Assembly (NCBI GenBank): GCA_044225175.1
Contig: JBGAJA010000001.1
Location: 206,114-270,113, forward strand
Source of the DNA: Candidatus Omnitrophota bacterium
GTDB lineage: Bacteria; Omnitrophota; Gorgyraeia; Zapsychrales; Fredricksoniimonadaceae
Direction: 5' to 3'
Length of the DNA: 64,000 nucleotides
Under the pieces are notes generated by a model. That model had not been told where the DNA came from. It saw only the letters and a list, made by a program, of their open reading frames with translations, and searched no databases. Positions 10,815 through 63,898 of the stretch are shown piece by piece; the first letter of the stretch is position 1; every line of letters starts with the position of its first letter. The translations under genes and the position numbers were made by a program.

Positions 10815-10836
10815 TAAAGCCTAACTAAGGGAGTGT

Positions 10837-12356: not shown

Positions 12357-12370
12357 CCTAAGGAGCGGAT

Positions 12371-13450: not shown

Positions 13451-13459
13451 GGGCAGATA

Positions 13460-43708: not shown

Positions 43709-44140
43709 ATGAAATCAAAAAATCATGGTTTTACATTGATTGAAATCAGTATTGTTTTAATCATTTTAGGTGCAATTGCTGTATTGGCATTTCCTGGTCT
43801 TTTTGCTCAAATTGAAAGACACCGAGGACAGGAGGCTCTTCAGTCTCTCAATCTTATTAAAAGTTTAGTTGAATCTTGTGGTTTACAAAATAGTGGGGAT
43901 TATACCAAATGTGATACTTGGGATGAAATTGGTATGACTAATCCATCAGGAACCAATTTCAAATATTCAGATCCATCCGATAGTACTGGGAATTCGATAA
44001 ATATTAAAGCTAACTTTGGAACTAATGTGTATAAACTCCAAGCAATTAGAATAACTTCAGGCGATACTATAACTATAGATAGGCCTGATACTGGTATTGC
44101 TACTTGTGCAGGCGTTGGGGCATATCGTGAGTTATGTTAG
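43709..44140 (+). CDS. Prepilin-type N-terminal cleavage/methylation domain protein
   Basis: HGFTLIEISIVLIILGAIAVLAF. Confidence 0.75.
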   Translation: MKSKNHGFTLIEISIVLIILGAIAVLAFPGLFAQIERHRGQEALQSLNLIKSLVESCGLQNSGDYTKCDTWDEIGMTNPSGTNFKYSDPSDSTGNSINIKANFGTNVYKLQAIRITSGDTITIDRPDTGIATCAGVGAYRELC

Positions 44141-44151
44141 AGAGGTATAGA

Positions 44152-44631
44152 ATGAATAAAAAAAGTGGATTTACTTTAATAGAGTTAGGTATTGTAGCTA
44201 TTATAGTAGGAATTTTGGTTTTAGTTGGCATACCCAATATGATCAAAGGCGTTAATCGTGGATATGCTCAAGATGGCCTTCGAAACTTAATGGCGATTTA
44301 TGCAGCGGAACAAAATTATGCACAAAATAATGATGGGAAACATTTTCCTGCTGTTGGAACGGCCCATTGTGATTTAAATTGTATGAATGGAGGCTTAAGT
44401 TTAAATATTGTTCAAAGCGGTTCCAATTTATATGACTGTAGTAACGCAGCAGAAGTAGTTACCTGTACGTTGAGTAATACCCCCGCTGCTTTTAAATTAG
44501 TATCCGTTTCTAATCTATCAATATCAGTTAATTCAAACCCCGTTTATTGTTTTAACGATCTTCCTAACAGTACCTACAATCCTTGTTGTCCTCTAACAGC
44601 TGGCCATGTCCCAGGGGATGCTTGTCCATAA
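44152..44631 (+). CDS. Prepilin-type protein, Cys-rich C-terminus
   Basis: SGFTLIELGIVAIIVGILVLVGIP. C-terminus ...NPCCPLTAGHVPGDACP. Start trimmed to MNKKSGF. Confidence 0.75.
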   Translation: MNKKSGFTLIELGIVAIIVGILVLVGIPNMIKGVNRGYAQDGLRNLMAIYAAEQNYAQNNDGKHFPAVGTAHCDLNCMNGGLSLNIVQSGSNLYDCSNAAEVVTCTLSNTPAAFKLVSVSNLSISVNSNPVYCFNDLPNSTYNPCCPLTAGHVPGDACP

Positions 44632-44633
44632 TT

Positions 44634-45137
44634 ATGAAAAATAAAGCAGCATTTACTATTATTGAAATTTTTCTCGTAATTGTAATATTAGGAGTCTTAG
44701 CTTGTTTTGCAGTTCCCAATTATATTTTAGGTTTAAGTCGAACATATGCTCGAAATGCAGTAGATAACTTAGTATCTATTCAATCTGCTCAATTAATTTA
44801 TATTCAAGCTAATGGCTCTTATTATGAGTCTAGTTATCAATCCAATAATCCTGCTGTTGATGATTCTCCTACTCTAAACAGTAGATTAAATTTAAACATT
44901 ACGCCCAATGGTGGGACTAAATATTATTGTGATTCTACTCCTGCTTGCCATGCTGTTCGTACAGATACGGGGGCTTTTGATATTCAATTAAATTTAAGAA
45001 TGCCAATTGTCAGTGTAGGAAGGCCTTTAATTTATTGTGATCCTGCAATTGCACCTGGTGGTCCTAGTCCTAATAATAATCCATGTTGTTTAAATACAAA
45101 AGGATATGCAAAAGACGCTCTCTGTCCAGCATTTTAA
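44634..45137 (+). CDS. Prepilin-type protein, paralog of the preceding gene
   Basis: AAFTIIEIFLVIVILGVLACFAVP. C-terminus ...NPCCLNTKGYAKDALCPAF shares the PCC...DAxCP motif with the previous gene. Confidence 0.75.
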   Translation: MKNKAAFTIIEIFLVIVILGVLACFAVPNYILGLSRTYARNAVDNLVSIQSAQLIYIQANGSYYESSYQSNNPAVDDSPTLNSRLNLNITPNGGTKYYCDSTPACHAVRTDTGAFDIQLNLRMPIVSVGRPLIYCDPAIAPGGPSPNNNPCCLNTKGYAKDALCPAF

Positions 45138-45140
45138 TCT

Positions 45141-45497
45141 ATGATTAAGAAAAACAATAAAGGCATCACTCTTTTAGAAGCATTTTTAGCTGCTTTTATT
45201 TTTATTATTTCTGTCTCTGCAATTTTTGTTACGATGACAAATTTACGTAAGCCTGCAGTGAATAATGAACAAGCCGTAGCGGCTGCTTTGACATTAAGTA
45301 ATATTCTAGAAGATTTACGTTCAAAGGTAGATAGCCGTGATTACGATACTGGAAAGCTTTCTATAAGACCAGAGGATAATCCTCATAAAATAAGTCTGGG
45401 GACTCAATACAAGATAGCCTATAACGTAACTGCAGACCCTTCTGGGTCAGGGGCTAGAAAAGTCGATGCCAGTATATTCTGGAATGATACCCTTTAA
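45141..45497 (+). CDS. Prepilin-like minor pilin or pseudopilin
   Basis: KGITLLEAFLAAFIFIISVSAIFV. Confidence 0.6.
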   Translation: MIKKNNKGITLLEAFLAAFIFIISVSAIFVTMTNLRKPAVNNEQAVAAALTLSNILEDLRSKVDSRDYDTGKLSIRPEDNPHKISLGTQYKIAYNVTADPSGSGARKVDASIFWNDTL

Positions 45498-45498
45498 T

Positions 45499-46275
45499 AT
45501 GAAAATTAATCAAATTCGATCTTTTACCATTATAGAAATTTTAGTCGCAAGTATTGTAGTGAGTATTATTTTACTAGGAGTTATTACGACGAGTATTTCG
45601 TTAAGTAATAGTGCCAGGTTTTCTTCTGGAAATTATTTTGTCACTCAAAGTACTCAAAGTACTTTAAATCATATACTCAAAAACGCAGCGTTAGCCATTG
45701 GTACGCCATCTAATCCTGGTTTTGTAGGAATGAATACTTTGTGGGATAAAGATGACTTAGGCAATCCTATAAAAGCTCCTGATGGAACTGTTTTGGAAGG
45801 AAATCCACCTTTGTCAGACCTTGTTGGTTCTGGAAAGCCATCCACTTTTTGTATCCATCAAAACCTATCTCTAAATGGAAGTTATAATATTCTAAATTCA
45901 AATGCATACCATCGATGGCTATGTTATACGTTAGATACAGCAACAAAGAATATTTATTGGTGTGCTAGAGCTTATGATGTTAATAATCCTCCTGGAACAG
46001 CTGGGTATCTTTCTAGTCAACCTGCTAATATAAATCATACAGGGGGGGCTCCCTGTTCTACAACAGATAATTTATTGGGAACGGCGACAAATATTTCTAC
46101 TTCTTTATCGATTAATGCCGCTGGAAGTTCTCAAAAGGTAGAATTTCAGGTAACTATTGATAATTGCCTTGACCCCAATGGTAATGTATTTGGCCAATGC
46201 GTGGCAGGCGGTTCAAATAATCCGTATGTTCAAAAAACAGGAACAATTTCTCCGTCAGGTCATGTGGGAGGTTAA
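45499..46275 (+). CDS. Prepilin-like protein with a large C-terminal domain
   Basis: RSFTIIEILVASIVVSIILLGVITT (Ser at −1). Start trimmed to MKINQIRSF. Confidence 0.55.
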   Translation: MKINQIRSFTIIEILVASIVVSIILLGVITTSISLSNSARFSSGNYFVTQSTQSTLNHILKNAALAIGTPSNPGFVGMNTLWDKDDLGNPIKAPDGTVLEGNPPLSDLVGSGKPSTFCIHQNLSLNGSYNILNSNAYHRWLCYTLDTATKNIYWCARAYDVNNPPGTAGYLSSQPANINHTGGAPCSTTDNLLGTATNISTSLSINAAGSSQKVEFQVTIDNCLDPNGNVFGQCVAGGSNNPYVQKTGTISPSGHVGG

Positions 46276-47600: not shown

Positions 47601-47637
47601 AATTCTTTTGGAGCATCGACCAAACTTCTTGGTATTT

Positions 47638-47726
47638 GGAGAGGTGGCAGAGTGGTCGAATGCGGCGGTCTCGAAAACCGTTGTCCGGCGTAAGTCGGAT
47701 CCAGGGTTCAAATCCCTGCCTCTCCG
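47638..47726 (+). tRNA. tRNA-Ser (anticodon CGA)
   Basis: GGAGAGG acceptor stem, long variable arm, anticodon loop CTCGAAA, T-arm CAGGGTTCAAATCCCTG. CCA is not encoded. Confidence 0.85.
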
Positions 47727-47734
47727 TTGAAAGA

Positions 47735-48382
47735 CATATGGGACATATACGAAAAATTGGGGAAGTGTATTATATTGAATTTTTTGCTAGAGGATTGATG
47801 TATTCTCAGGTTGCAGGTCTAACTGAAGAAGGAGCCCGAGAGATGCTTGAAAAGATTGAGAGTAAGATCTCAGCAGGGGAAGCTTTAACGATTGTCAGGC
47901 AAATTAATTTAGATGTTTTTTTTGAGAGGTATCTAGAAGATGTTCATGATCAATTTTCTTCAAAAAGTATTGAGCGTTTTTCTTCGGCCTGGAGAAGTCT
48001 ATTGAATTTTCTAAACAAAAATTATCCGGAAGTTTATCAGTTGTCTCAAATCACGCCATTTTTAATTGAGTCGTATAAAGCCTATTTAATTCCATTAGAA
48101 ACGCCTAAGATTGTCAATTTCACTCTGCTTTTGTTAAGGGAAATTTTTGAGTACGGTATTAAGATTGGGTTTTTAAACGACAATCCATCCTTACATGTCA
48201 CATTGTTGAAAATGACACCATCACCTTTAAGAAAGGGTGCCCGTTCCCAGATAGCAAAAGAATTATTAACTAACGGAGTAATATTAGGAAAAATTTATCA
48301 AGTTCTAAAATTGAAAGATGTGGCTCAGGTCATGTTTTGGTCAAATTTTATTCCCCTGAAAAGGGAAGATGTGTATAATTAA
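47735..48382 (+). pseudogene. Truncated tyrosine-recombinase (phage-type integrase): N-terminal arm-binding and SAM-like core-binding domains only
   Basis: GEVYYIEFFARGLMYSQVAGLTEEGAREMLEKIESKISAGE is the AP2-like integrase N-terminal domain, and ...SQITPFLIESYKAYL the core-binding domain. The ORF ends at the start of the catalytic domain, so no RHRY catalytic residues are present. It sits 8 nt after the tRNA-Ser. Confidence 0.6.
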
Positions 48383-48403
48383 CGGCTTGTAACGCAATTT
48401 TGG

Positions 48404-48438
48404 GAGAGGTGGCAGAGTGGTCGAATGCGGCGGTCTTG
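48404..48438 (+). repeat. Direct repeat of the tRNA-Ser 5' half (att-like remnant)
   Basis: ggagaggtggcagagtggtcgaatgcggcggtct is identical to tRNA-Ser positions 1–35 and diverges at the anticodon loop. Confidence 0.7.
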
Positions 48439-48599
48439 AAATCCGAAAAAGCCCATTTTCTCAACCTCTTGAAATTGCTAAAAAGACCGCAGTTGTCGTC
48501 GACAAAATTGATTTTTAGGCCTTTGGATACTTTTGGATTTTTTAAGTATTTTTAATCTAAAACCGTCACGATTTCGACACCAAAAAAGGAGGTCAAAAA

Positions 48600-49010
48600 A
48601 TGACTTTCCAACCCATCAAAAGATTCATCACCCAATTTAATGACAAAACTTTTGCTACTCTATGGTTAGAGTCATTATTATTTTCTGTACTTTTTGGAAT
48701 AGGGTTTCATTCTTTGCTGGTATCTGTTTTGATGTTCGTAGGCTTAACATGGCTTATGAATAAGTGGAAAGGGACGCTCTATGCGATTCTCACGTTAAGT
48801 TTTCTGTGGGGATTTATTGTTTTCTGTATTTGTTATAGTGCTGGTGGATGGGTGTGGGGTCTTGGTTTAGGAGCGATAGTTTTTTATAAAGGAGTAAGAG
48901 TACATTTCCGTGAGTTAAAAGAGTCTTTGGATAATTTTAATTTTTTCACTTCTAATAATATTAGAGAGTGGCGACAAGATAATTATTGGGGTAGGCAGAA
49001 TTTGAATTAA
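48600..49010 (+). CDS. Small integral membrane protein (about 4 transmembrane helices)
   Basis: Strong RBS aaaaaggaggt. Hydrophobic segments. No domain recognised. Confidence 0.5.
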   Translation: MTFQPIKRFITQFNDKTFATLWLESLLFSVLFGIGFHSLLVSVLMFVGLTWLMNKWKGTLYAILTLSFLWGFIVFCICYSAGGWVWGLGLGAIVFYKGVRVHFRELKESLDNFNFFTSNNIREWRQDNYWGRQNLN

Positions 49011-49117
49011 TCATGGGACTCAATTTTTTATACCCTATGTGATTTAATAAATCACAGGAGGGTTCTTGTTTGAAGTAGAAAATAGTATTCAACACAATTG
49101 ACTTAAATGAGGATTAT

Positions 49118-50293
49118 ATGAGTGAGAATCAAGACATTGCTTTTAGTGCAGATTTAAGACCTGGTGGGAAAGAGGAATTGTTTGAGAATTTGAATGATTT
49201 TCAAATATGGCTAAATGTCGAACGAGAATTTTGGAACTGGATGGAAGTTCTGAGACAGAAGAATCCTAATGCTCACCACTACATTAATAGCTACTATCAG
49301 AGGTTAAATCAAATACAGGCTCATTTAGAAGCTACTCTTAATAATACAAATATTCCTCATCATCGGGGTCAATTAATTCAGGTTCTACAGAATTATTATC
49401 AAAAAAATCAATTAATTCACTCCTCACAACCCCGAGCAAAGTTTCTCAAAGAAATATTTGAAAAAGATCCAGCCCACGCTGTTTATACTTTGAAATTTTT
49501 TATTGATCGTAGATTTAATCAAGATACACCAGGAGAAATTGAAGGTTCTTTCTCTGCACTATTGTTTGAACATAATGTTAAGGATAGTAATAAAGGAGAA
49601 ACAAAAGCCCTGGAAGAACTTCGTGATTTGTGGCAAATACATCTAAATAATTCTAAGACAGATTTAACAAATATAACAAACGATTATGCGAACACTCTAA
49701 TAAAGCTTCAAGATCAAAAGAATGAAGAGAAGAAAAAATTTGAAGAATTATTAGGTAAAGCAGAAAAAGAACATGAGCAACGTATTGAAAAAGTGAAACA
49801 ACGCTTTAAAGAAATTGAAGACCTCTATGAGAAAAAATTAGCGCTTCATGCTTCAATTAAATATTGGGGAGAGAAAGCGAAAAGTCATTTTAGATGGTCG
49901 ATAGGGTTTACTATAGCTACTCTCGGGGGGTTTTATATTGCAGGGAATTGGTTATATAACATTATGAGATCAGTGATAGGAAATGCAACAATCAAAGACC
50001 TAGAAGTATGGAAAATAGGGTTGCTGTTAATTGCAGCGACAATAGGTGTTTGGATAACACGGGTTTTAATAAGATTGTTGTTAAGTAATGTTCATTTATG
50101 GAATGATGCCAATGAGCGAAGGACAATGATTCAAACATACTTGGCCTTACATAATGAAGGCAAAATGCCTGACCAATCACGAGAATTGATTCTTCAGGCT
50201 TTGTTTCGTCCTACAAGCACGGGTATAGTAAAGGATGATGCAGCTCCTCCTTTTATGGCTGAATGGTTAAAGAGAACAACAGGGGCCGACTAA
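49118..50293 (+). CDS. Hypothetical protein: N-terminal helical/coiled-coil domain, two transmembrane helices, short C-terminal tail
   Basis: 391 aa. Transmembrane helices near residues 255–275 and 290–315. Convergent with the TIR gene. Confidence 0.5.
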   Translation: MSENQDIAFSADLRPGGKEELFENLNDFQIWLNVEREFWNWMEVLRQKNPNAHHYINSYYQRLNQIQAHLEATLNNTNIPHHRGQLIQVLQNYYQKNQLIHSSQPRAKFLKEIFEKDPAHAVYTLKFFIDRRFNQDTPGEIEGSFSALLFEHNVKDSNKGETKALEELRDLWQIHLNNSKTDLTNITNDYANTLIKLQDQKNEEKKKFEELLGKAEKEHEQRIEKVKQRFKEIEDLYEKKLALHASIKYWGEKAKSHFRWSIGFTIATLGGFYIAGNWLYNIMRSVIGNATIKDLEVWKIGLLLIAATIGVWITRVLIRLLLSNVHLWNDANERRTMIQTYLALHNEGKMPDQSRELILQALFRPTSTGIVKDDAAPPFMAEWLKRTTGAD

Positions 50294-50342
50294 TGACTTT
50301 AAGGAATACAAGAATTTTATAGAAAATAAGCAATTTTGAGAA

Positions 50343-51695
50343 TTAAAAATGCTGCAATGAACTAAAAGGAGTGCTTCCTTCTCGAGGGGCATTTCCGTTT
50401 ATATAAACTTTCCACAAAACCACGTATTGAGCCCTATTCTGCCATTTATCAAAATTTAAAGAGTAAATGAGGTTGGATATTCCGTTTTCTCCAAATATTC
50501 GTATTTTCTTGCCTGGTAAAAGGAATTTATTAAATTCTTTTTTACCGCTATCTGGTAGAGCGGAATAGTCAAATATAAGATTTAAATAGCCAGGGTTATC
50601 CCGTGATTCACTCGACGTTAAATGAGGGTATTCCCATTTTTTCTTTTCCATATATTCACTAGGAAATTGAAGTTCAATAACAATATTTTTAAATTCTTCT
50701 TTTGTCTTATTTTCGATTTCAAGAAGGAAAGAATATTCGTGTAACTCTGAGGTTTGTTTCAAGGTTTTATAGGTTACTTCTACGTTGGCAGATGATGCGA
50801 TTGGAGAATATCCTTCTTTTAATTTGAGGAGTTCTGTTAATTCGTCTGGTTGCATAGTGTAGGTATTATTTGGAATTCCAAATTGTTCACATATTTTCTT
50901 ACAACTACTTAAAAGATCGGTTGAATCGAATAGTGTTATCCCTTGTGTAACTAAATTTAAAGGTGATCCAAATTCAGTTGGTGATATATTGGTATACATA
51001 GGATAGATTTTAAAACCTCGACCCCAAACGGCAGCGGATTCCCACCATACCCAAGAAGACTCCTGAGCCAATCGAGAGCAAATAGGAATTATAGCCTCTG
51101 CATTTTTTAAATTGGTTTCTAACATAATTTTTAGAGGGTCATCGCCAGGTTGTATACTACGTCTTGCGATAAATATCTCTGCCTTATCTTGAGTAAATTT
51201 TCTAAGTATTTTTTTTATGAAATCAGCTAAAGCGAGTTCTTCACTGGCATAACTGATAAAGATTATAGGGAGTTGTTGAATGGGGCACCTCTCTTTTATA
51301 TATCTAATTTTTTCTTCTGCAATTTCTTTTGTTTGTGAGGTTACACGTATTAGGCCCTCTTTCTTAAAGGGTGTATAAATGAAGGTGCATCTTGGGCTAT
51401 TATTCGTTGTTCCACTTATGCAAATATCATAAGTTAATTCTTGTTTGTATGCTTGAATAAGTTCAGCCAGGCTACTTACGGTGTGTTTAATGCCATCTGC
51501 GCTGTGCCAATAAGCAGTGATCCCACCAATAACATGTGGGTAACCAGGGAAGCCTTGAAACTCTTTACCCCAAGTTTGATCAAAAATTTCAAATAGTTGA
51601 TCTGAGGTTAGAATTTCGGGGGAAAATCCAATATAAGATAAGGTTACGCTGCTTTTCATTTTTGATAATATACTGCGCAAGACTTCAAAGGTCAA
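50343..51695 (-). CDS. TIR-domain protein with unknown N- and C-terminal domains (candidate defence or NADase effector)
   Basis: The central PIIFISYASEELALADF...AIIPICSRLAQESSWVWWESAAVW matches the TIR βA (FISY) and SxW...E motifs. The tracked start is TTG; an alternative ATG lies at 51659. Confidence 0.6.
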   Translation of the reverse strand: MTFEVLRSILSKMKSSVTLSYIGFSPEILTSDQLFEIFDQTWGKEFQGFPGYPHVIGGITAYWHSADGIKHTVSSLAELIQAYKQELTYDICISGTTNNSPRCTFIYTPFKKEGLIRVTSQTKEIAEEKIRYIKERCPIQQLPIIFISYASEELALADFIKKILRKFTQDKAEIFIARRSIQPGDDPLKIMLETNLKNAEAIIPICSRLAQESSWVWWESAAVWGRGFKIYPMYTNISPTEFGSPLNLVTQGITLFDSTDLLSSCKKICEQFGIPNNTYTMQPDELTELLKLKEGYSPIASSANVEVTYKTLKQTSELHEYSFLLEIENKTKEEFKNIVIELQFPSEYMEKKKWEYPHLTSSESRDNPGYLNLIFDYSALPDSGKKEFNKFLLPGKKIRIFGENGISNLIYSLNFDKWQNRAQYVVLWKVYINGNAPREGSTPFSSLQHF

Positions 51696-51795
51696 TGTAC
51701 CATTAGTAAACGAAGCGAACTTTATTTTTTACTACAAACAAACTACAAAAAGAACTACATCCGTGTAGTTGTTTTGTAGTAAATGTCTTTCCTAA

Positions 51796-51916
51796 CTCTC
51801 CCATTTGCAAGGGGTTTTTGGGGAAAAGCACCCAAAACTGTTCCCGACCCCACTCCCTCAACCATAGGTTAAGCGGAGGGACTGGGGTCGGGAACTACCA
51901 ATTGCAAATGGGAGAG
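51796..51916. repeat. Nested inverted-repeat structured element (perfect 15-bp outer inverted repeat plus 20-bp inner hairpin)
   Basis: Outer ctctcccatttgcaa / ttgcaaatgggagag. Inner gttcccgaccccactccctc–loop–gagggactggggtcgggaac. An additional ttttggg/cccaaaa hairpin lies between. Confidence 0.6.
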
Positions 51917-51987
51917 AGTAGAAGGGTGAGAAGATGTTGTATACTTGAGAAGGTGGTTAAGGAAGAATTTAAAAGGGAGGAATTATT

Positions 51988-52509
51988 ATGGAAACAGTAG
52001 GATTTTTTAACGGTGTATTAGGTGATGTATTTAAAACAGTAAGGCAAAGAATAGGAATTAAAGCTGATATTGATTTAGAAAAGATGAGGTTGATTGCAGA
52101 TAAAAAAGAAACACGTATTAAGGAATTAAAAGAGGCTCATAATATTTTGTTTGATCTGTCTAAGGAGTTCTCTCAGGACACTACTTATATCTTTTTTTCA
52201 TCAAAAATGAGCAGAGACCAATACAATAATCGATACCTAGATAAATGGACTGATCTCAATCGATTTATGGCCATAATAGCTACATACTTTCCCCAACTAA
52301 ATGATTTGGCGGAAAAGCTGGCTGGGAAGATAAATATTTATTGGGGTCAACAGCAGAATTTGTTATACCAAAAAGAAAAAGGTAGCGATCAGGTGGTTTG
52401 TATGGAAGTATTAAATAATGTTACTCAAGCAACGTTCAATATTGAAGAAACCATAAATTCTCTTAAGGTAGGTCTCAATAAAATATTAAATGAATTGAAA
52501 GAGGATTAG
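51988..52509 (+). CDS. Hypothetical protein
   Basis: 173 aa. RBS aaaagggagg. No domain recognised. Confidence 0.45.
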   Translation: METVGFFNGVLGDVFKTVRQRIGIKADIDLEKMRLIADKKETRIKELKEAHNILFDLSKEFSQDTTYIFFSSKMSRDQYNNRYLDKWTDLNRFMAIIATYFPQLNDLAEKLAGKINIYWGQQQNLLYQKEKGSDQVVCMEVLNNVTQATFNIEETINSLKVGLNKILNELKED

Positions 52510-52766
52510 TTTTAAATCTTTACCAACCGTTTTAATCAAATCCGCAGGTGGTTTGTCTCTGGTGCAGACAGGTTAGGCACATTCATTAGTTCAAGAGTTC
52601 GTATTCGTACGCTCCCGCATCCTTTCGATTGTTTTTTCGATTCTGTCATACGTATCAAGGACTACGCCCCACATAAAGCCTGTGAGGCTTGCAAGTGCTC
52701 CGCTCCGCTTCGCATCCTTGACACGTATGCCTTTAGATAATTAAAAAAATCGAAAGGAAACTCACT

Positions 52767-53285
52767 ATGCAAAACACACAAACAACACCAAAAATCTATG
52801 TAGCTTGTCTGGCAGCTTACAATAATGGTTTCTTACATGGTAAATGGATTGAAGCCAATCAGGAAGCAGAAGCTATCTATAAAGAGATACAAGAAATGTT
52901 AGCCAAAAGTCCTATAGCTGGTGCAGAAGAATGGGCTATCCATGATTATGAAGGCTTCATGGGTTTACAGTTATCAGAGTCTGAGGATATTGTTACTGTA
53001 GCAAGCATAGCGGTTATGTTAGAAAAGCATGGAGAAGCTTGGGCATTGTTTACGGAACATGATGGCATAGAATACGCCACAGAAGAGAGATTTGAAGAAG
53101 CGTATGAAGGTGAGTGGGATTCAGAAGAAGATTTTGCTGAAAATTTGGCTAGTGAGACTATGGAAATTCCGAAGCATTTAGAATTTTACATAGATTACGG
53201 GAAACTAGCCTATGATCTTTTCATTAACGATTATTTTTCTGCGGAAGGAAGTAGCCATAAGGTTCATGTATTTAGAAGGCTTTAA
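52767..53285 (+). CDS. ardA: Antirestriction protein ArdA
   Basis: KIYVACLAAYNNGFLHGKWIE...EEWAIHDYEGF and C-terminal LEFYIDYGKLAYDL are collinear with Tn916-type ArdA. Strongly acidic. Confidence 0.8.
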   Translation: MQNTQTTPKIYVACLAAYNNGFLHGKWIEANQEAEAIYKEIQEMLAKSPIAGAEEWAIHDYEGFMGLQLSESEDIVTVASIAVMLEKHGEAWALFTEHDGIEYATEERFEEAYEGEWDSEEDFAENLASETMEIPKHLEFYIDYGKLAYDLFINDYFSAEGSSHKVHVFRRL

Positions 53286-53767: not shown

Positions 53768-53840
53768 TCTTTTCTTCTTAAAATAGTGTCCTTTTCTATA
53801 AAGGGACGCAGTGTCTTTTTTTATTTTTAAGGAGGAAATT

Positions 53841-54221
53841 ATGAAATTATTATTTACTGTTATTTACATATTTTTGATTGGCACTGTTTCTGTTAATGCT
53901 TCTAGTAAAGTTAAAGAACACATGGCCATACATAAAATTCAATTTAATTCTAAATCTGATCGCATTAAATCATTTCATATGGAAGATGACGGCCAATTTA
54001 TTCATTTAAGCGGAATAATATCTAAAAGGCTGGGAGTGCCTTTTAGTAATTACTCCATTAAGACTGTTTGTGTTGATCAGAACGATAAAATTATTGATAA
54101 AGACAGCACACGTATAAGCGGAAGTTCAAGTTTTCTGCGTGGAAGAACAACGGCAAATTTTTATACAAGGATAAAGGATCATCAAGAAATAACAAAATGT
54201 GACATTAATGTTAGCGGTTAA
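53841..54221 (+). CDS. Secreted hypothetical protein
   Basis: RBS aaggagg. Signal peptide MKLLFTVIYIFLIGTVSVNA. Start trimmed from the ORF-tracker ORF. Confidence 0.45.
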   Translation: MKLLFTVIYIFLIGTVSVNASSKVKEHMAIHKIQFNSKSDRIKSFHMEDDGQFIHLSGIISKRLGVPFSNYSIKTVCVDQNDKIIDKDSTRISGSSSFLRGRTTANFYTRIKDHQEITKCDINVSG

Positions 54222-54235
54222 AAGGAGAAATCATT

Positions 54236-55630
54236 ATGCGAAATAAAGTTTTGATTGCCATCTGGTTATTAGCGCCAGGATTGGTATGGGCAGGAGACAA
54301 GGAGTCGGTATCTTCAGGGAATATGAAGAATTTATCTGAAGTGCAGCACATCGTTAAAGATAGAAGTGCCTACTCTATTAAAGAACAACCTTTAAGCGTG
54401 AAGGGGCCCCTAGATGAAGAGCAGGCCATTAGTTTATCTTTAAACAATAATTTAGTGCTTAAAGCATTATTTGAGAGATACGCAGTAGATAGGGCTGATA
54501 TCATAGGAGAAAGTTTATTAAAAAATCCTAAATTTTCTTATTCATCTAGAAAATCCAATGAGCCAGACACCAAAAGGGATACGGAATGGCAAATTAAAGT
54601 TGATGCTTTGGATTTATTATTGTGGCCTTTAAAGAAACAAGCACAACATCGTCAGATTAAATCCGCTGAATTTATGGTGGCTTCCAAGGTTTTGGATTTT
54701 ATCAAAGAGGTAAAAGTAAATTTTTATCATCTACAAGAAGCGCAGGCAGTAATGGATTCTTATGAAGATGATATGCAAGCCCAGCAGACCATCTTAGATT
54801 TAGCCAAAGGAATGTATGGAGCAGGAAACAGCAATATTCTTCAATGGCAAAAAGCACAGGTCGTATTTCATGAATCAAAATTAGGCTACTTAGATGCGAA
54901 ACGTGATTTAGCTATAGCTAGAGAAAATTTAAACTTGCTCTTAGGTTTACCTAAGGGGGAAGATGATTGGAAAATAAATAGCCAATTTAAAGATATTGCT
55001 TTTAGTGAACCTGAATTAACAAAACTTAATCAGATGGCACAAGAGAACCGTCTGGAAATTATTATTGCTAAAGCCCAGATTGGTATTTTAAGCAATAAGC
55101 TGACCATGGCTCGGGCTGGACTTTTGCCGTCATTCGAAGTCGGTTATGATCAAGAACGTGAAGCTAGTGGCAATAAACTCAAAGGCATGGTGTTGGAAAC
55201 GGACGTACCAATTTTTAATTTTAATCAAGCAGGAATGTTACGGTATGAATCACTTTTAAGCGAATCAAAGATTAACGTACCAGCAGTAGAAGCCTTGGTA
55301 ACTAAAGAAGTTAATGTGGCTTATCAGGAGTTAATTACAGCAAGGGCTAAAGTTGAAAATCTTCAAGAAGTCTTACCGCTCTATCAGCAAATGACTAGAG
55401 AGACGCTGTATCATTACAATTTTATGTTAAAAGATGTTTTTTCTGTGTTAGAAGCCAAAAGTGTACAGTTAAAAGCAAAGTCAGAATTTGCTAAAGCTAT
55501 GAGTGAATATTGGCAGGCACGGACTGAATTAGAACATGCGGTGGGGCATACTTTGTCATATACACCCTTAGTTCAAAAAACAGTTGAAGAACAAAAGACT
55601 AACGAAGCTGAACATCATCATGGAGGCTAA
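54236..55630 (+). CDS. Outer-membrane efflux protein (TolC/CusC family) with His-rich C-terminus
   Basis: Signal peptide. Two-repeat OEP-like helical/β pattern. Ends ...EAEHHHGG. Confidence 0.65.
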   Translation: MRNKVLIAIWLLAPGLVWAGDKESVSSGNMKNLSEVQHIVKDRSAYSIKEQPLSVKGPLDEEQAISLSLNNNLVLKALFERYAVDRADIIGESLLKNPKFSYSSRKSNEPDTKRDTEWQIKVDALDLLLWPLKKQAQHRQIKSAEFMVASKVLDFIKEVKVNFYHLQEAQAVMDSYEDDMQAQQTILDLAKGMYGAGNSNILQWQKAQVVFHESKLGYLDAKRDLAIARENLNLLLGLPKGEDDWKINSQFKDIAFSEPELTKLNQMAQENRLEIIIAKAQIGILSNKLTMARAGLLPSFEVGYDQEREASGNKLKGMVLETDVPIFNFNQAGMLRYESLLSESKINVPAVEALVTKEVNVAYQELITARAKVENLQEVLPLYQQMTRETLYHYNFMLKDVFSVLEAKSVQLKAKSEFAKAMSEYWQARTELEHAVGHTLSYTPLVQKTVEEQKTNEAEHHHGG

Positions 55631-55631
55631 T

Positions 55632-56834
55632 ATGTTTAAGTGTTTAATAATGTTTTTAATGCTTATAGTTTCATCAAGTAGTACATCATGGGCGCAGCCA
55701 TTGTCCTATACTCCTGTCATCACGCCTAATGGCAGTACAATGCCGTGGACATTGGCCAAGGATGGAGTTAAAGAGTTTCATATCACCGTTGGAGCATGTC
55801 AACATGAAATAGCACCTGGTATGACTATCAATGCCTGGTGTTATAACGGTCAAACGCCAGGGCCAACGATTGAAGTCGTTGAAGGAGATAGAGTAAGAAT
55901 TTTTGTTAAGAATGAACTACAAGAAGGTACGGCTGTTCATTGGCATGGAGTATTCTTGCCCAACGGTATGGATGGTGTTTCAGGTTTGACACAAAAATCC
56001 ATAGAACCAGGACAGACGTTCAAATATGAATTTACCTTAAAACAGCACGGAACGTTTATGTATCATTCCCACGGCGATGAAATGACACAAATGGGCTTAG
56101 GTACTATGGGCTTCTTTATTGTTCATGCTAAAGATGAACCCAAGGTTGATCGTGATTTTGCAATTTTCTTAAATGAATGGTTTGTTGAGCCAGGCACAAA
56201 AACACCCAATCCGAATATTATGACGGACTTTAATATTTTTACTTTCAATAGCCGAGCATTTCCTGGAACAGCTCCTTTGGTCGCTAAAACTGGAGATAGG
56301 ATAAGAATTCGTATAGGTAATGTTGGTCAAGAATCTCACCCTATTCATTTGCATGGGTATGCTTTTAAAGTAGTCGCAACTGATGGGGGAGATATTCCAC
56401 AATCAGCCCAATATCCAGAAACAACGGTTGTAACCTTTCCTGGTCAGACACGCACAGTTGAATTTGTCGCCAATGCTCCTGGTGATTGGGCACTGCATTG
56501 TCATCGTAGACATCATCCGATGAATGCCATGGGGCATGATGCAGCCAATGTACTAGGGGTTAATCAAGATAGCGTTAAAGATACTATCCGTAAACTTGTT
56601 CCTGGGTATATGCCGATGGGAGAAAACGGTATGGATGAGATGAACTACATGCAAATGAAAGGCCCAGCAAATACTCTGCCTATGATGGGTGGTCAAGGTC
56701 AATTTGGCCCCACAGGCATGGGAGGCATGTTCACAGTCTTTAAAGTTAGGGATAATCTTAAAGATTATGATAACCCTGGAGAATATCCTCATCCAGCGGG
56801 AACAGTTGCAAGTGTAATCGAAGATAAAAAATAA
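55632..56834 (+). CDS. Multicopper oxidase with Met-rich C-terminal region
   Basis: Copper-site motifs HWHG, HPIHLHG, HCHRRHHPMNAMG. C-terminal MPMGENGMDEMNYMQMKG...MMGG. Signal peptide. Start at the ATG after ggagg. Confidence 0.8.
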   Translation: MFKCLIMFLMLIVSSSSTSWAQPLSYTPVITPNGSTMPWTLAKDGVKEFHITVGACQHEIAPGMTINAWCYNGQTPGPTIEVVEGDRVRIFVKNELQEGTAVHWHGVFLPNGMDGVSGLTQKSIEPGQTFKYEFTLKQHGTFMYHSHGDEMTQMGLGTMGFFIVHAKDEPKVDRDFAIFLNEWFVEPGTKTPNPNIMTDFNIFTFNSRAFPGTAPLVAKTGDRIRIRIGNVGQESHPIHLHGYAFKVVATDGGDIPQSAQYPETTVVTFPGQTRTVEFVANAPGDWALHCHRRHHPMNAMGHDAANVLGVNQDSVKDTIRKLVPGYMPMGENGMDEMNYMQMKGPANTLPMMGGQGQFGPTGMGGMFTVFKVRDNLKDYDNPGEYPHPAGTVASVIEDKK

Positions 56835-56859
56835 CAATCATCAAAGAAAGGAAATACGT

Positions 56860-57204
56860 ATGAAAAATAGAACCATAACAATATTAGTTGCAGGTAGTAT
56901 TTTGATGTTAGGAGGCTATTCTTTTGCTCAAGAAGCAGATCATGGCCAGGTTATCAGTGATAAGCAGGCTATGGAAGATATTGCTGCAAAGAAGGCTGTA
57001 GAAGTTGGCAATACAATTTGTCCTGTAAGTAAAGAAGAGATTCCTGCACCGGGTAAAGAAGGCCCAATGGGCGGGGCTATTAAATATGAATACAATGGTA
57101 AGATTTATAATCTATGCTGCAAGATGTGTGTAAAGGATTTTAAAAAAGATCCTGAGAAATATAGCAAAATTGCAGAAGATCAAGCTAAAACTGTCCAGAA
57201 ATAA
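56860..57204 (+). CDS. Periplasmic YHS/TRASH-domain metal-binding protein
   Basis: Signal peptide. ICPVSKEEI...YEYNGKIYNLCCKMCVKDFKKDPEKY matches the YHS pattern. Confidence 0.6.
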   Translation: MKNRTITILVAGSILMLGGYSFAQEADHGQVISDKQAMEDIAAKKAVEVGNTICPVSKEEIPAPGKEGPMGGAIKYEYNGKIYNLCCKMCVKDFKKDPEKYSKIAEDQAKTVQK

Positions 57205-57264
57205 TTGTTAGTTGATTAGCGGGTGGGAAAATTTGATTCCCACTCGCTATCTAAAGGAGAATTT

Positions 57265-57690
57265 ATGTTGGAACAACTGTTTCCCATACATCCCAAGCTT
57301 GTGCATTTTCCTATTGCTTTATTTATGACTGCATTTGCTTTGGATAGTTTAAGCTGGATTTTTCGTAAGGAACATTTACATAACACAGCAATAGTTATTT
57401 ATGTATTTGCGGCGTTATTCACTCCTCTAGTTGTCTGGACAGGGTTGTTTGAGCAACAGAGACTTCATTTGAATCATCCTGTCCTTAATCAACATAAATT
57501 ATACGCTTTTGGGACGATGTGGATTTCTTTAGCTTCATTACCTGTTTTATGGTTTTTGAAAAAGTTTTTTTCTAGAAATTTTAGAATAATATTTACATTG
57601 CTGCTTTTAAGTTTGGCAATACTGGTTACAGTTACAGGGCATTTTGGTGGACGTATGGTTTATGAATATGGAGCAGGAGTACAGAATTAA
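57265..57690 (+). CDS. Membrane protein (DUF2231-like, four transmembrane helices)
   Basis: Hydrophobic helices. Start trimmed to MLEQLF. Confidence 0.45.
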   Translation: MLEQLFPIHPKLVHFPIALFMTAFALDSLSWIFRKEHLHNTAIVIYVFAALFTPLVVWTGLFEQQRLHLNHPVLNQHKLYAFGTMWISLASLPVLWFLKKFFSRNFRIIFTLLLLSLAILVTVTGHFGGRMVYEYGAGVQN

Positions 57691-57710
57691 GATAGACTGA
57701 AATTATTCTC

Positions 57711-57742
57711 TTGACTCTCCACCATACTGGAAGGTGTATAGT
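57711..57742 (+). promoter_or_regulatory. MerR-type promoter: TTGACT, 20 nt spacer, TATAGT, with a GGAAGGT half-site in the spacer
   Basis: ttgactctccaccatactggaaggtgtatagt. The over-long spacer is typical of MerR/CueR-controlled promoters. It sits upstream of the MerR-family gene. Confidence 0.5.
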
Positions 57743-57768
57743 TTTATTAGATAACAAGGGAGATAAAA

Positions 57769-58167
57769 ATGTTTATCGGTGAACTCAGTAAAGAGACAGG
57801 TATTCCAGTTAAGACAATACGGTATTACGAAGAGTTTGGGCTTTTACATAAGCCGAAAAGATCAGTGTCTCAATACCGTATTTATAATCATAAAGACCTT
57901 GAAAAACTTTTATTTATCAAGAAGTCTAAAGATTTGGGGCTAACCTTAGCTGAAATAAAAAAAATCATCAAACGTAGCAGTAGTGGAGTTGAGGCAACGT
58001 GTTGTTTAGTCCATGAAGTTTTTGAAGAAAAAATAGCTGATTGTGAACAAAGAATCAAAGAATTAAAAGAAACTAAGAAGCGCTTAAGCGAACGGCTTCA
58101 CCATTGGATAACAACCAGTGAAGCTAAGAAATTAAAATTTACAATTTGTCCTCAAATTGATAAGTAA
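57769..58167 (+). CDS. MerR-family metal-responsive transcriptional regulator (CueR-like)
   Basis: N-terminal MFIGELSKETGIPVKTIRYYEEFGLL HTH, dimerisation coiled coil, C-terminal Cys-containing tail. Confidence 0.75.
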   Translation: MFIGELSKETGIPVKTIRYYEEFGLLHKPKRSVSQYRIYNHKDLEKLLFIKKSKDLGLTLAEIKKIIKRSSSGVEATCCLVHEVFEEKIADCEQRIKELKETKKRLSERLHHWITTSEAKKLKFTICPQIDK

Positions 58168-58313
58168 GATGGTTCAAATGAGGCTAACAGTATTTAAAAT
58201 TAAGTAGTTTTACTTAGATTTGCGAGTATGTTTCCGTACAGTATTTTTTTGTCTGTAGTGTTATTTTAGTTAAATAAAAATTTAAGGGTAATCTTTTATA
58301 AGGAGGTGGTTTT

Positions 58314-58964
58314 ATGCATGGAGATGAATTAGGGAGTTATGCCTATGGTATGTGGCCTGTGGTAATTTTTAACATACTTATTTTTTCTTTTTTTATCATT
58401 AGTTTTGTTAAGCCTCAAGGCAAAGTCGAATGGGCTTCTATGGGTGCTTTCATAGGATTTATCGTCGCTTTATTTACAGAAATGTACGGCTTTCCGTTGA
58501 CGATTTATCTCTTGTCAACCTGGATGGGGAAATCATATCCAGTTTTAAATCCATTTTCTCATAATCATGGTCATTTATGGCTGGTTTTGTTGGGGTTGGC
58601 TGATTCTGCATGGGCGATGACTCTTCTACATATAGTGAGCAATGGCATGATTCTTATCGGTTTTTATATAATTCAGAAGGGCTGGGTGCTTATCCATGCC
58701 GCAGCCGGCAAACGTTTGGTAACAGAAGGTATTTATGCTCATATACGACATCCTCAATATAGTGGGATGTTTTTGATAACCTTAGGTTTTCTTTTGCAAT
58801 GGCCTTCGATATTAAGTCTGGTGATGTGGCCTATTTTGATGTTCGCCTATTATCGTCTGGCTATGAAGGAAGAAAAAGACGTTCAGAAAATATTCGGGAA
58901 ACAATATGAGGAATACAGGAAGACAGTTCCTGCATTTATTCCTAAATGGGGAGGTACAAAATGA
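58314..58964 (+). CDS. Isoprenylcysteine carboxyl methyltransferase (ICMT/PEMT)-family membrane methyltransferase
   Basis: LVTEGIYAHIRHPQYSGMFL... is the family signature. Confidence 0.65.
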   Translation: MHGDELGSYAYGMWPVVIFNILIFSFFIISFVKPQGKVEWASMGAFIGFIVALFTEMYGFPLTIYLLSTWMGKSYPVLNPFSHNHGHLWLVLLGLADSAWAMTLLHIVSNGMILIGFYIIQKGWVLIHAAAGKRLVTEGIYAHIRHPQYSGMFLITLGFLLQWPSILSLVMWPILMFAYYRLAMKEEKDVQKIFGKQYEEYRKTVPAFIPKWGGTK

Positions 58965-59113
58965 CAAATACAATGTTTATTCTTATTGTGTTTATAGTTC
59001 TAATTGCTTTCATGATGATGAGAAAAGGCGGTGGAGGTTGTTGCGGTGGTCATCATGATGAAAAATCTGAAACAGATAAAAAAGAGGATGATAGGAAGCA
59101 CGGGTGTCATTAA
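58961..59113 (+). CDS. Small membrane peptide (50 aa) with GGGGCCGGHH and C-terminal HGCH motifs
   Basis: Not in the ORF track (under 60 aa). ATG overlaps the upstream stop (ATGA). One transmembrane helix then the Cys/His tail. Confidence 0.5.
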   Translation: MTNTMFILIVFIVLIAFMMMRKGGGGCCGGHHDEKSETDKKEDDRKHGCH

Positions 59114-59157
59114 CGGGAATTATCTAAAGATTGTAAAACTTGGAAAGGAGGATTGAA

Positions 59158-59409
59158 ATGAAAAATCATAATCATGGTTTATGGATGATGCTCTGTTGCA
59201 TTTTGCCTTTATTGGCAATTTTTCTGTTGCCGGGCTTTGGAGCTAGGGGTAATTCTTCAATTCTATTCTTTGTCATTATGATGTTTGCTTGTCATTTTAT
59301 GATGATGGGTGGTCATCAGCATGGTGAAGAGAATACTGACAATAAGACAGAGAATGAAGAAGATAAAAATAAAGAACACAAGGAAGGGGGTCATCATGGG
59401 TGTCATTAA
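59158..59409 (+). CDS. Small membrane protein with CC and C-terminal GGHHGCH motif, paralogous tail to the 58961 peptide
   Basis: RBS aaaggagg. MKNHNHGLWMMLCCILPLL... ending ...GGHHGCH. Confidence 0.55.
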   Translation: MKNHNHGLWMMLCCILPLLAIFLLPGFGARGNSSILFFVIMMFACHFMMMGGHQHGEENTDNKTENEEDKNKEHKEGGHHGCH

Positions 59410-59686
59410 TATTAAAAGATTCGGACTAGCGGTTGGTTTAACTCTGGTTTTTTTACGTCTGGGGTGCATCATTGTGTTTTTAATGACAACTAGGGAACAG
59501 GCAGTAGTTTTTTTTAATACTCTTTTGCATGGGATCGATGTTAGTTCGATATTAAAGACTGAAATGTCTGTCTTAGAGATGGTATTTGGACTGATTCAGA
59601 TATTTATTTTAGGGTGGTTAACAGGAGCAACAATAGCTAGTATTTATAACTTTAGTTTTAATAAAAAGAAAGGGTGTTGCATATGA
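59396..59686 (+). CDS. Small membrane protein ending in KKKGCCI
   Basis: ATG at 59396 preceded by ggaaggggg. Three hydrophobic segments. I rejected the ORF tracker's N-terminal extension at 59309, which overlaps the upstream gene. Confidence 0.4.
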   Translation: MGVINIKRFGLAVGLTLVFLRLGCIIVFLMTTREQAVVFFNTLLHGIDVSSILKTEMSVLEMVFGLIQIFILGWLTGATIASIYNFSFNKKKGCCI

Positions 59687-59820
59687 AAAACAATATTATA
59701 GGTATCATAGTATTTGCTATTTTAATAGTCTCAGGATTAGCCTTTGCTCATACGATGGGAATGGGTGGCGGTTGTTGCGGTGGTGCTCATCATACCTGTA
59801 GTCTGCATCACGCTCAGTAA
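59683..59820 (+). CDS. Small membrane peptide (45 aa) with MGMGGGCCGGAHH motif
   Basis: Not in the ORF track. One transmembrane helix plus a GGGCCGG.HH tail like the 58961 peptide. Confidence 0.5.
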   Translation: MKNNIIGIIVFAILIVSGLAFAHTMGMGGGCCGGAHHTCSLHHAQ

Positions 59821-59886
59821 TAAGAAAATGATAATGTATAATAGACAACAAATGAAGCTGTTGTTAACTAGAGAAAGGTAAAGTTT

Positions 59887-60309
59887 ATGAAAAACAGTAT
59901 CGCAGTATTCACAGCAATTGTAGTTTTAACCGTTTCAGGATTGGCCTTAGCCCAAATGAATGATAAGGGCAAAGAAATGATGGGGGACAAAACAGGAATG
60001 ATGGAGGGTAAAGGCGGCATGATGGGAATGATGGGTGGTAAAGGGATGATGGGTATGATGGGAATGTGTCAGTCCATGATGAACAAACCGTCTGTGGTTG
60101 CGGTTGGTGATGGAGTGGTTGTTTTATCAGGTAAAAAACTCTATAAATATGATGCCAATCTCAATTTAATTAAAGAAGCTGATGTTAAGGTGGAAGAGAT
60201 GGGAATGATGGGTGGGGATATGATGGGCAAAGGTAAGATGGATGCTGATGATAAAGAATCAGCAGAAGAGGCGGCTAAACATGCATCACATCATCCAGAA
60301 CAAAAATAG
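59887..60309 (+). CDS. Periplasmic methionine-rich copper-binding protein
   Basis: Signal peptide, then repeated [10 protein letters not shown] motifs and a His-rich C-terminus. Confidence 0.7.
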
Positions 60310-60326
60310 TCAAAGAGGGCTTATTT

Positions 60327-62871: not shown

Positions 62872-63642
62872 TTGTTTATGCGTGCGATTCCGCAAAAAAT
62901 TCAAATCTTGAAGTTCATAGGGGAACAGGGAATTGTTACTCTCTCTGATGTATCCCGCCATTTATTTAGTGAAGATAAGCTTTCTTATGTACGGGTTACT
63001 ATGTATGAGCTAGGTATAGCTCACAAAAAATACCCAGATGTAGCTAATGGTGTTTGGTTTATTGATAATCCAAAACTTTATGAGCTATTGAGTCTTTATT
63101 TTCCTGATTTTCCGCAATTAGAAGTCAAACCCTTTACCCTACATAAAATCCCACATAGTTTAGAAATAAACCGTATCCGCAGTACATTTACTCAATCCCA
63201 TCTTATTACAATTGATGAATGGTGGTCAGAAAGGTTGATCTGGGCATTGCCTGTTTCCCATCGTGAAGATTTTTGTAGCGATAAAGTCCCTGATGCTATT
63301 TTTTGGCGTAGACGTAAGGATGGTAGCCGACAAAAATATTTTCTTGAATATGAACGCACTTTAAAGAGTAAAGAGCGTTACGAAGAGATTTTTCGCTCTT
63401 ATGCCAAGTGTAAAGATGTCAAAGACCGCAATGTCATCTACATTTGCCAGACTCTGCGTATTAAAGAAGAGCTTCAAGACATAGAAGAACGCTTAGTCAA
63501 AGCAGGTCGATTAGCTGATGTTGCTCTCTATTTTCAATTCATTACCCTCGAAGGCTTTTATAAAACACATTCAAACCACAATTTAAAGGAGGAAGTAAAC
63601 CATGAACAAACTCAAAAAGTATACGCAAACGTATCTGTTTAA
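62872..63642 (+). CDS. Hypothetical winged-helix-like protein (possible mobile-element replication, relaxation or regulatory protein)
   Basis: N-terminal ILKFIGEQGIVTLSDVSRHLF is wHTH-like. Preceded by an inverted-repeat-rich intergenic region. Confidence 0.35.
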   Translation: MFMRAIPQKIQILKFIGEQGIVTLSDVSRHLFSEDKLSYVRVTMYELGIAHKKYPDVANGVWFIDNPKLYELLSLYFPDFPQLEVKPFTLHKIPHSLEINRIRSTFTQSHLITIDEWWSERLIWALPVSHREDFCSDKVPDAIFWRRRKDGSRQKYFLEYERTLKSKERYEEIFRSYAKCKDVKDRNVIYICQTLRIKEELQDIEERLVKAGRLADVALYFQFITLEGFYKTHSNHNLKEEVNHEQTQKVYANVSV

Positions 63643-63898
63643 TTGTTTATTAATGACATTTTTGTTCTTTATTCTTTTTAATACACCTGCTTTTGCTGAT
63701 TTAACTAGCAGTATGGAAGACTTGCAAAGCAGGGTAAGGAGTATTTGCACACCTTTAGCAATAATCTTTCTTGTCATTGCAGGTATGCAAAAGGCAATGG
63801 GGAATAACCAGATTTTTGTTCTGGCTTTGGTTGGAACAATCATCATGTTTGGGGCCCCACAAATTGTTTCTTTTATTAGCGCTGCCTTTGGAGGGTAA
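63602..63898 (+). CDS. TrbC/VirB2-like conjugative type IV secretion pilin
   Basis: 98 aa. Signal peptide ...NTPAFA|DL, then two hydrophobic helices separated by a short polar loop. Confidence 0.5.
   Translation: MNKLKKYTQTYLFNCLLMTFLFFILFNTPAFADLTSSMEDLQSRVRSICTPLAIIFLVIAGMQKAMGNNQIFVLALVGTIIMFGAPQIVSFISAAFGG

Follow-up and report, generated by a model that had tools for sequence, protein, structure and literature searches.

Two unrelated single-gene phage-defence candidates as cargo in a variable slot of a probable integrated conjugative element from a Candidatus Omnitrophota bacterium

We analyzed positions 48600-52509 of a 64,000-nucleotide stretch of DNA from a Candidatus Omnitrophota bacterium (contig JBGAJA010000001.1); the whole stretch is called the window in the following. 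Four genes lie in this region. They encode a small membrane protein of 136 amino acids (aa), termed p136, an AbiZ-like protein of 391 aa (p391), a protein with a TIR domain and a protein of 173 aa (p173). In the reading that we favor, with a probability of about 0.72, the region holds two unrelated single-gene phage-defence candidates, the AbiZ-like gene and the TIR gene, which together with p173 are cargo in the variable slot of a conjugative element integrated in the genome. The initial annotation had described one multi-gene defence locus. Two defence-type genes in the variable region of a mobile element were indeed found, but their pairing is not conserved and the reading as a multi-gene immune system is not supported. 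The AbiZ-like gene is a diverged AbiZ, and the TIR gene falls into the stand-alone TIR class, within a TIR/beta-sandwich family that is so far uncharacterised. Neither has a conserved partner, and both sit in a layout of backbone and cargo genes that recurs in related loci.

All four open reading frames (ORFs) were confirmed at the annotated coordinates (Table 1). Each has homologues elsewhere and all four are therefore considered real genes. Good Shine-Dalgarno sequences precede the p136, p391 and p173 genes. For the TIR gene the most likely start is Met13, because homologues start at this residue and an independent gene call on an identical contig has the same length of 438 aa. The AbiZ-like and TIR genes are convergent and separated by 49 bp. 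The GC content drops to 0.33-0.34 over 49-51 kb, the cargo part of the region. A scan for promoters and terminators gave counts no higher than the shuffled expectation, and no convincing terminal repeats were found flanking the AbiZ-like/TIR insertion.

The slot becomes visible by comparison with related Omnitrophota loci. In three of them (L056, L058 and L059) a homologue of p136 (83, 41 and 71% identity, respectively) is followed by different genes or none and then by the anti-restriction gene ardA (95, 72 and 73% identity). Blastp and blastn comparisons revealed that the window has only three parts in common with these loci: the p136 gene, a non-coding block of ~195 bp and the ardA region from 52512 onwards. 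In L059 both sites are empty and the order is p136, 85 bp, block, 199 bp, ardA region. Compared with this empty locus, the window has two insertions. Site a (49011-51744) contains the AbiZ-like and TIR genes, and the ardA-proximal site b (51938-52512) contains p173. The other two loci carry different cargo between p136 and ardA. In L056, site a (7124-8745) is occupied by genes for a retron-type reverse transcriptase and a small membrane protein; the reverse transcriptase matched the PADLOC retron model and other models of defence reverse transcriptases, and arsenic-resistance genes were found in the same interval. L058 has a DndB-like gene and two unknown genes.

A pattern scan starting from the block added 28 metagenomic loci (L060-L087) with the order p136, variable genes, hairpin motif, variable genes, ardA; in many of them the genes between the backbone parts are different ones. 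Their defence-type cargo comprised E1-E2/JAB, PDC-S59, a ThsB-type TIR, RES, HEPN/nucleotidyltransferase toxins and DUF4238; in L060, for example, site a (9326-13984) contains an E1-E2/JAB ubiquitin-like conjugation gene set. The slot also takes up cargo without a defence character, namely chemotaxis genes (MCP/Che), response regulators, transposases and genes for arsenic and copper resistance. Defence hotspots of mobile elements are a known phenomenon, with hotspot 5 of the SXT integrative and conjugative element (ICE) and the hotspots of P2 and P4 as examples. As in these, backbone genes flank a slot of changing and often defensive content. In contrast to them, the present element family has not been described before, its slot is split by a DNA motif with a conserved structure, and only part of the cargo is defensive.

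Contrary to the initial assumption, the 136-aa protein is a conserved backbone gene product of this mobile-element family and not part of a defence system. It thereby falls under a refuting case that the initial annotation itself had named, a membrane protein that belongs to the mobile element. Twelve homologues were found, and the one carrying a source name comes from a Candidatus Omnitrophica bacterium. The four TM (transmembrane) helices given in the initial annotation correspond to three to four hydrophobic segments in the hydropathy profile (approximately aa 18-50, 60-80 and 72-96). One could imagine that p136 and p391 form a membrane-protein operon, for instance a toxin/immunity or holin-like pair, given that both are membrane proteins encoded on the same strand with a gap of 108 bp. 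However, each gene has its own Shine-Dalgarno sequence, p136 homologues at every other locus precede unrelated genes or directly the backbone motif, and no p136 homologue was located near any of 43 loci with a DUF6161 gene or near the other TIR loci. We regard such an operon as extremely unlikely.

Profile searches place p391 in the AbiZ/DUF6161 family. The protein matched Pfam DUF6161 (PF19658) with E = 1.6e-25 and 90.3 bits (cutoff 27), and the PADLOC AbiZ model (PDLC02354) with E = 7.1e-22. The latter match started at aa 147 and covered profile positions 160-384 of 398. In the protein collection 46 homologues were found, nearly all of them with ~395 aa. Hydropathy analysis revealed a strong TM segment at aa 298-320 and a weaker one before it, at about aa 259-283. 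The AlphaFold2 model was all-helical (mean pLDDT 83). In it, the N-terminus folds into a compact helical domain, residues 157-287 make up one very long helix, and the TM positions form a helical hairpin. Thus, the helical N-terminal domain and the two TM helices of the initial annotation were recovered. Its "short C-terminal tail", however, is the most conserved part of the family: the ~70 aa after TM2 stand out, and most invariant residues of the family alignment fall within 315-369. No Macro, SLOG or SIR2 domain, the folds proposed as candidates for the N-terminal domain, was detected in Pfam, PADLOC or NCBIfam. When the model was compared with the PDB by Foldseek, the only matches were long coiled coils with E>=0.25. 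Since the N-terminal domain is all-alpha, the Rossmann-like Macro, SLOG and SIR2 folds are excluded.

The closest known system is AbiZ of the Lactococcus lactis plasmid pTR2030, reportedly described by Durmaz and Klaenhammer in 2007. By tblastn against plasmids, we identified one from Lactococcus on which a DUF6161 protein (WP_032398699.1) is encoded near abiA. This layout is presumably that of pTR2030, and from the gene context WP_032398699.1 is presumed to be AbiZ itself. BLASTP aligned it with p391 at 26% identity over aa 133-376 (E = 1e-18), and hhalign with the p391 family profile gave a probability of 98.7% over profile positions 198-391, the C-terminal half. The two proteins share the same profile families, a coiled helical region, a two-helix membrane hairpin and the conserved segment after the TM helices. 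Both are, moreover, encoded by single genes on mobile elements among other defence genes. They differ in that p391 has a low identity to the presumed AbiZ and an unrelated N-terminus, and in that its host belongs to a diderm candidate phylum rather than to the Gram-positive bacteria. The initial annotation had also pointed to the logic of several abortive-infection systems. The profile matches argue for an abortive-infection protein, but one catalogued as a single-gene and not as a TIR-paired system; AbiZ is listed as a one-gene system in DefenseFinder. A 2026 review (PMC13064643) presents AbiZ as a single protein for which neither a domain nor a structural neighbour can be recognised; infected cells lyse prematurely through its action, in which the holin of the phage probably takes part. 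A defence predictor based on ESM independently flagged a DUF6161 family (10.1101/2025.01.08.631966).

The TIR protein consists of an N-terminal alpha/beta domain, the TIR domain with an invariant Glu219 and a C-terminal beta-sandwich. The TIR fold is present, with a TIR_2 match of 34.4 bits (cutoff 28). The ThsB_TIR model gave 17.0 bits and stayed below its cutoff of 21.2, a ThsB structure was among the weaker Foldseek matches, and PADLOC returned no ThsB match. The family has 59 members, whose conserved core is the TIR domain plus a domain of ~150 aa modelled as a beta-sandwich. Foldseek matches of the latter were a macroglobulin receptor-binding domain, CLIPPER and cohesin modules. Forms of 437 aa possess the N-terminal 135 aa, those of 311 aa lack them, and in others this part is replaced. 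F146, S148, W215 and E219 are invariant; across 50 homologues, the F-x-S-Y strand, W215 and E219 were invariant or nearly so. E219 lies four residues past the Trp, which we take to be the position of the catalytic Glu in NADases of the TIR_2 type (S-x-W-x3-E).

Homologues with 44-50% identity were read in six distinct contexts, and their neighbours differ in all six. Four are defence islands, in which the gene stands next to BREX, beside a Gabija-like OLD/UvrD pair and type I restriction-modification (R-M) genes, beside type I R-M, HEPN_AbiU2 and an integrase, or beside Fic and an integrase. In the fifth context a gene for an Mrr-type nuclease is the neighbour, and in the sixth the homologue stands alone amid housekeeping genes. 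None of the six contexts has a DUF6161 gene near the TIR homologue. The TIR gene is thus a stand-alone gene without an obligate partner. A comparable case is SpbK (YddK) of ICEBs1, a single TIR-domain abortive-infection NADase (PMC8880864, PMC12847820). SpbK has no detectable sequence similarity to the TIR protein of the window, which has the additional N-terminal alpha/beta domain and the C-terminal beta-sandwich.

The pairing of the two genes was addressed by a census of DUF6161. One genome per species was scanned, which resulted in 43 loci from many phyla. ORFs were called in the flanks and searched with the window proteins, and two neighbours on each side were clustered. No relatives of p136 or p173 were found in these loci, and none of the window TIR beyond a weak match in the TIR domain in L050. 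In the flanks of 40 of the 43 loci there is no TIR gene at all, and L026 has one ~5 kb off. Among the 83 genes directly adjacent to DUF6161 homologues, TIR_2 occurs in two (L016 and L050). MmeI-type R-M, ParE and AAA_21 reach similar counts, and many of the adjacent genes are housekeeping genes. The neighbourhood is mixed overall, with R-M, ParE, HEPN, GmrSD and housekeeping functions. Neighbour families recur only within close taxa, as does thyX, which lies upstream in four loci of Rhodobacteraceae, and the clustering likewise gave no conserved small upstream ORF beyond recurrence among close taxa. The closest homologues of p391 (57 and 46% identity) have HEPN and type IIG R-M genes or unannotated genes as neighbours, and no TIR gene. 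The AbiZ-like gene is therefore autonomous, without a conserved partner, and the proposed co-occurrence of its homologues with TIR genes is not conserved.

The initial annotation had seen the logic of type II Thoeris, in which a ThsB TIR protein acts with a two-TM Macro effector. The resemblance is that a TIR gene adjoins the gene of a protein with two TM helices. In a two-gene system of this type, the TIR protein would sense the phage and produce a signal derived from ADP-ribose, which would activate the AbiZ-like protein to breach the membrane. Such a system would fit the direct adjacency of the genes here and in a Bryobacterales locus (L016:7959-9965), where a DUF6161 gene and a 257-aa TIR gene stand tail-to-tail with a gap of 60 bp, as in the window. 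In L050 a TIR gene adjoins an 88-aa DUF6161 fragment, and the adjacency as such is borderline enriched (see below). A ligand could be sensed by the N-terminal domain, which is conserved in the 391-aa family, and a recent preprint counts ~29 types of Thoeris effectors, several of them membrane proteins (10.64898/2025.12.03.692087). However, the L016 and L050 TIR proteins match the window TIR in the TIR domain only and belong to different families, and the nearest relatives of p391 and of the window TIR always occur unpaired. The genes are convergent and do not form an operon. Neither Macro, SLOG or SAVED nor any other domain known to sense nucleotides is present in p391, its soluble domain being all-alpha and without a match to a known fold. 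DUF6161/AbiZ is not among the effectors named in the text of the preprint or in its accessible supplements (10.64898/2025.12.03.692087). Lactococcal AbiZ acts as a single gene. Together with the TIR-free flanks, these points make a Thoeris-like system very unlikely, and the initial comparison was not borne out.

A related idea is that DUF6161/AbiZ-like proteins are facultative effectors of TIR-made signals and represent a further Thoeris-like type. We consider it decidedly improbable. If true, the tail-to-tail pairs in the window and in L016 as well as the remnant in L050 would be functional couples, and the all-alpha N-terminal domain would be a new sensor of nucleotide signals.

One or both genes might also act outside phage defence. 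The DUF6161 protein could have a general role in the membrane or in stress, and that of the TIR protein could lie in competition between elements, ICE addiction or NAD metabolism. Thy1 genes next to distant DUF6161 homologues, short TIR/beta-sandwich homologues amid glycolysis genes in WOR-1 bacteria, and the MCP/Che, arsenic- and copper-resistance cargo of the slot are all compatible with this. On the other hand, the AbiZ profile match is strong, the catalytic motif of the TIR domain is invariant, close homologues of both genes reside in defence islands (BREX, R-M, Gabija-like, HEPN) and the ESM-based predictor flagged a DUF6161 family (10.1101/2025.01.08.631966). Overall, we hold a non-defence role to be unlikely.

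Several observations speak against two independent defence genes on a conjugative element. The AbiZ-like and TIR genes share one insertion site, so that a joint arrival is possible. The adjacency of DUF6161 and TIR genes is nominally enriched, with 2 of 83 adjacent genes compared with 1 of 538 ORFs (one-sided Fisher p = 0.048), although the screen was less sensitive for non-adjacent genes and the count is too low to be given weight. Only the C-terminal half to two thirds of p391 resembles the lactococcal protein. Its N-terminal 130-190 aa are unrelated, and no alignment was obtained before residue 133 with BLASTP or residue 193 with hhalign. Distant DUF6161 homologues (23-26% identity) lie directly downstream of thyX (Thy1) in conserved synteny. 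This linkage to a housekeeping gene indicates that not every DUF6161 member need be defensive, and part of the family may be chromosomal and outside defence islands. A catalytic role of Glu219 is suggested by its conservation and its position in the motif, and a search of the TIR family profile against PDB sequences gave nothing at E<=0.01 and hence no residue-level alignment to a solved NADase. Finally, apart from an integrase remnant, neither a relaxase nor an integrase of the element was seen inside the 64-kb window.

The family memberships, the domain architecture, the lack of conserved partners and the arrangement of backbone and cargo are shown by the analysis. Anti-phage activity and both modes of killing are inferred from them, and the following model is offered on this basis. 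The slot would form the left edge of an integrated conjugative element next to a tRNA-Ser gene, with p136, the hairpin-rich non-coding block and ardA as backbone and the two insertions between them. In site a, two independent convergent single-gene candidates would act on their own. The AbiZ-like protein is probably an inner-membrane protein whose two ends face the cytoplasm. As a homologue of lactococcal AbiZ, it would permeabilise the membrane or advance lysis once late phage functions such as the holin appear, and the cell would die before progeny mature. The TIR protein may detect infection via its variable N-terminal domain, the conserved beta-sandwich or both, and may then oligomerise. 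Its TIR domain, with the invariant Glu219, would hydrolyse NAD+ and thereby cause abortive infection, comparable to the ICE-borne SpbK.

With this, the apparent four-gene "system" resolves, by comparative data, into stacked single-gene defences that are exchangeable cargo. Until now, AbiZ had been studied in Lactococcus alone; the family is extended here to a diderm candidate phylum, and the diverged N-terminal domain of the new member offers comparison material for what AbiZ senses. A compact TIR plus beta-sandwich family is defined that behaves as a stand-alone module. Furthermore, a family of probable conjugative elements is outlined in uncultured Omnitrophota-like bacteria, in which a structured DNA motif divides a defence-rich site from an ardA-proximal site. 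The layout of the slot is useful for mining cargo, including unannotated candidate genes for defence and anti-defence.

The structured motif is the most unusual item of the region and stands apart from the defence finding. It is a three-way hairpin arrangement of ~120 nt, preceded by a small hairpin, and consists of an outer stem of 12-15 bp and two hairpins, one of 7 bp and one of 19 bp, the longer of which has a conserved bulge. DNA folding gave z = -8.5 for one strand and -10.3 for the other. In 22 distinct metagenome copies, 98.7% of the cells were paired and 12 of 41 pairs had compensatory changes. G-U was found in 3 of 901 cells, and the pairs are nearly all Watson-Crick. This scarcity of G-U pairs fits a structure at the level of single-stranded DNA. 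No matches to the motif were obtained in Rfam, the plasmid collection or viral contigs, and the motif always has a p136 homologue on one side and ardA on the other. Possible roles are those of an origin of transfer (oriT), an Frpo-like single-strand promoter or a recombination site. With the Frpo/ssi promoters and oriT hairpins of leading regions (PMC11541004) it shares that it is hairpin-rich, conserved and upstream of ardA, on the ardA strand. In contrast to these, its stems contain no convincing -35/-10 pair, and neither a nic site nor a relaxase was identified.

The p173 gene had been taken as a further part of the defence system. It is a separate insertion in site b and is missing from this site in L056, L058 and L059. 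Its family has 93 cluster representatives at E<=1e-3. No match was found in Pfam (46 family members searched), PADLOC, PDB profiles, plasmids or phages, and no p173 homologue was near TIR homologues. Its location, with the motif on one side and ardA on the other and on the same strand as the latter, would suit a gene that is expressed early and serves establishment or anti-defence.

We assign the slot to a probable conjugative element because of a TrbC/VirB2-type pilin gene in the window, ardA, the orphan DNA methylases and the UmuC-like gene that follow ardA in related loci, and the group of tRNA-Ser gene, integrase remnant and tRNA half on the left. The ardA side resembles a leading region as conceived for conjugative elements (PMC11541004). 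The intact tRNA-Ser(CGA) gene is likely the integration landmark of the island. The partial copy downstream of it forms a 46-nt direct repeat that is 93% identical to 47635-47680 and is a candidate for an att-type repeat or a remnant at the left edge of the element. A 3' half of tRNA-Ser, which would mark the right att site, was not found elsewhere in the window. Upstream of p136 in L056 and L058, tRNA-like fragments were recognized by eye but not confirmed by Rfam, and none were seen in L059.

Table 1. Features of the window and of related loci (positions refer to the window unless a locus is named)
Feature	Position	Strand	Remarks
tRNA-Ser(CGA), intact	47637..47727	+	ARAGORN; Rfam tRNA 59.3 bits; just downstream of serS
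Integrase remnant	47738..48382	+	Phage_int_SAM_5 2.4e-5, ORF aa 94-184; SAM-like N-domain only, no catalytic domain
Partial tRNA-Ser, 5' half	48403..48445	+	anticodon loop TGA; Rfam tRNA 22.5 bits, sub-threshold
p136	48600-49010	+	136 aa; small protein with 3-4 TM segments; backbone gene at slot edge
p391, AbiZ-like/DUF6161	49118-50293	+	391 aa; cargo, site a
TIR gene	50343-51659	-	438 aa from Met13 (ORF reaches 51695); cargo, site a
Small hairpin	51728-51783		precedes three-way motif
Conserved non-coding backbone block	51744..51938		between site a and site b; blastn-conserved in L056, L058, L059
Three-way hairpin motif, ~120 nt	51796-51916 (core)		
p173	51988-52509	+	173 aa; soluble; cargo, site b; same strand as ardA
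ardA anti-restriction gene	52767..53285	+	Pfam ArdA 4.1e-38; backbone, right edge of slot
TrbC/VirB2-type conjugative pilin gene	63602..63898	+	Pfam TrbC 9.9e-9
thyX in thyX-linked DUF6161 loci	L035, L040, L043, L045 (Rhodobacteraceae)		~1 kb upstream of DUF6161 match
Large Pfam-less proteins	L063:9044-13966, L071:3786-6779, L075:2176-5367		
Large Pfam-less proteins	L083:3792-7388, L084:525-3542, L065:75-2705		

Some further features were noted. The duplicated tRNA half at the left edge is the 5' and not the 3' half, which is an unusual arrangement. In related elements, large proteins of 876-1640 aa without a Pfam match are encoded directly upstream of the hairpin motif and are possible cargo or backbone (Table 1). 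Window positions 14956-15716 are ~65% identical to L059 7878-8635 and 11341-12125, which lie inside large unannotated genes after ardA; the window may thus encode a related large protein elsewhere. In the window, ardA is followed by a copper/metal-resistance cargo block (53811-62600) with OEP/TolC-like, multicopper oxidase, YHS, DUF2231 and MerR genes, a PEMT-like methyltransferase, DUF5676, a Met/Gly-rich protein and a 757-aa P-type ATPase. Just upstream of serS, at 43709-46275, five genes for type IV pilin- or pseudopilin-like proteins with N-terminal 'GFTLIE' prepilin motifs were found.

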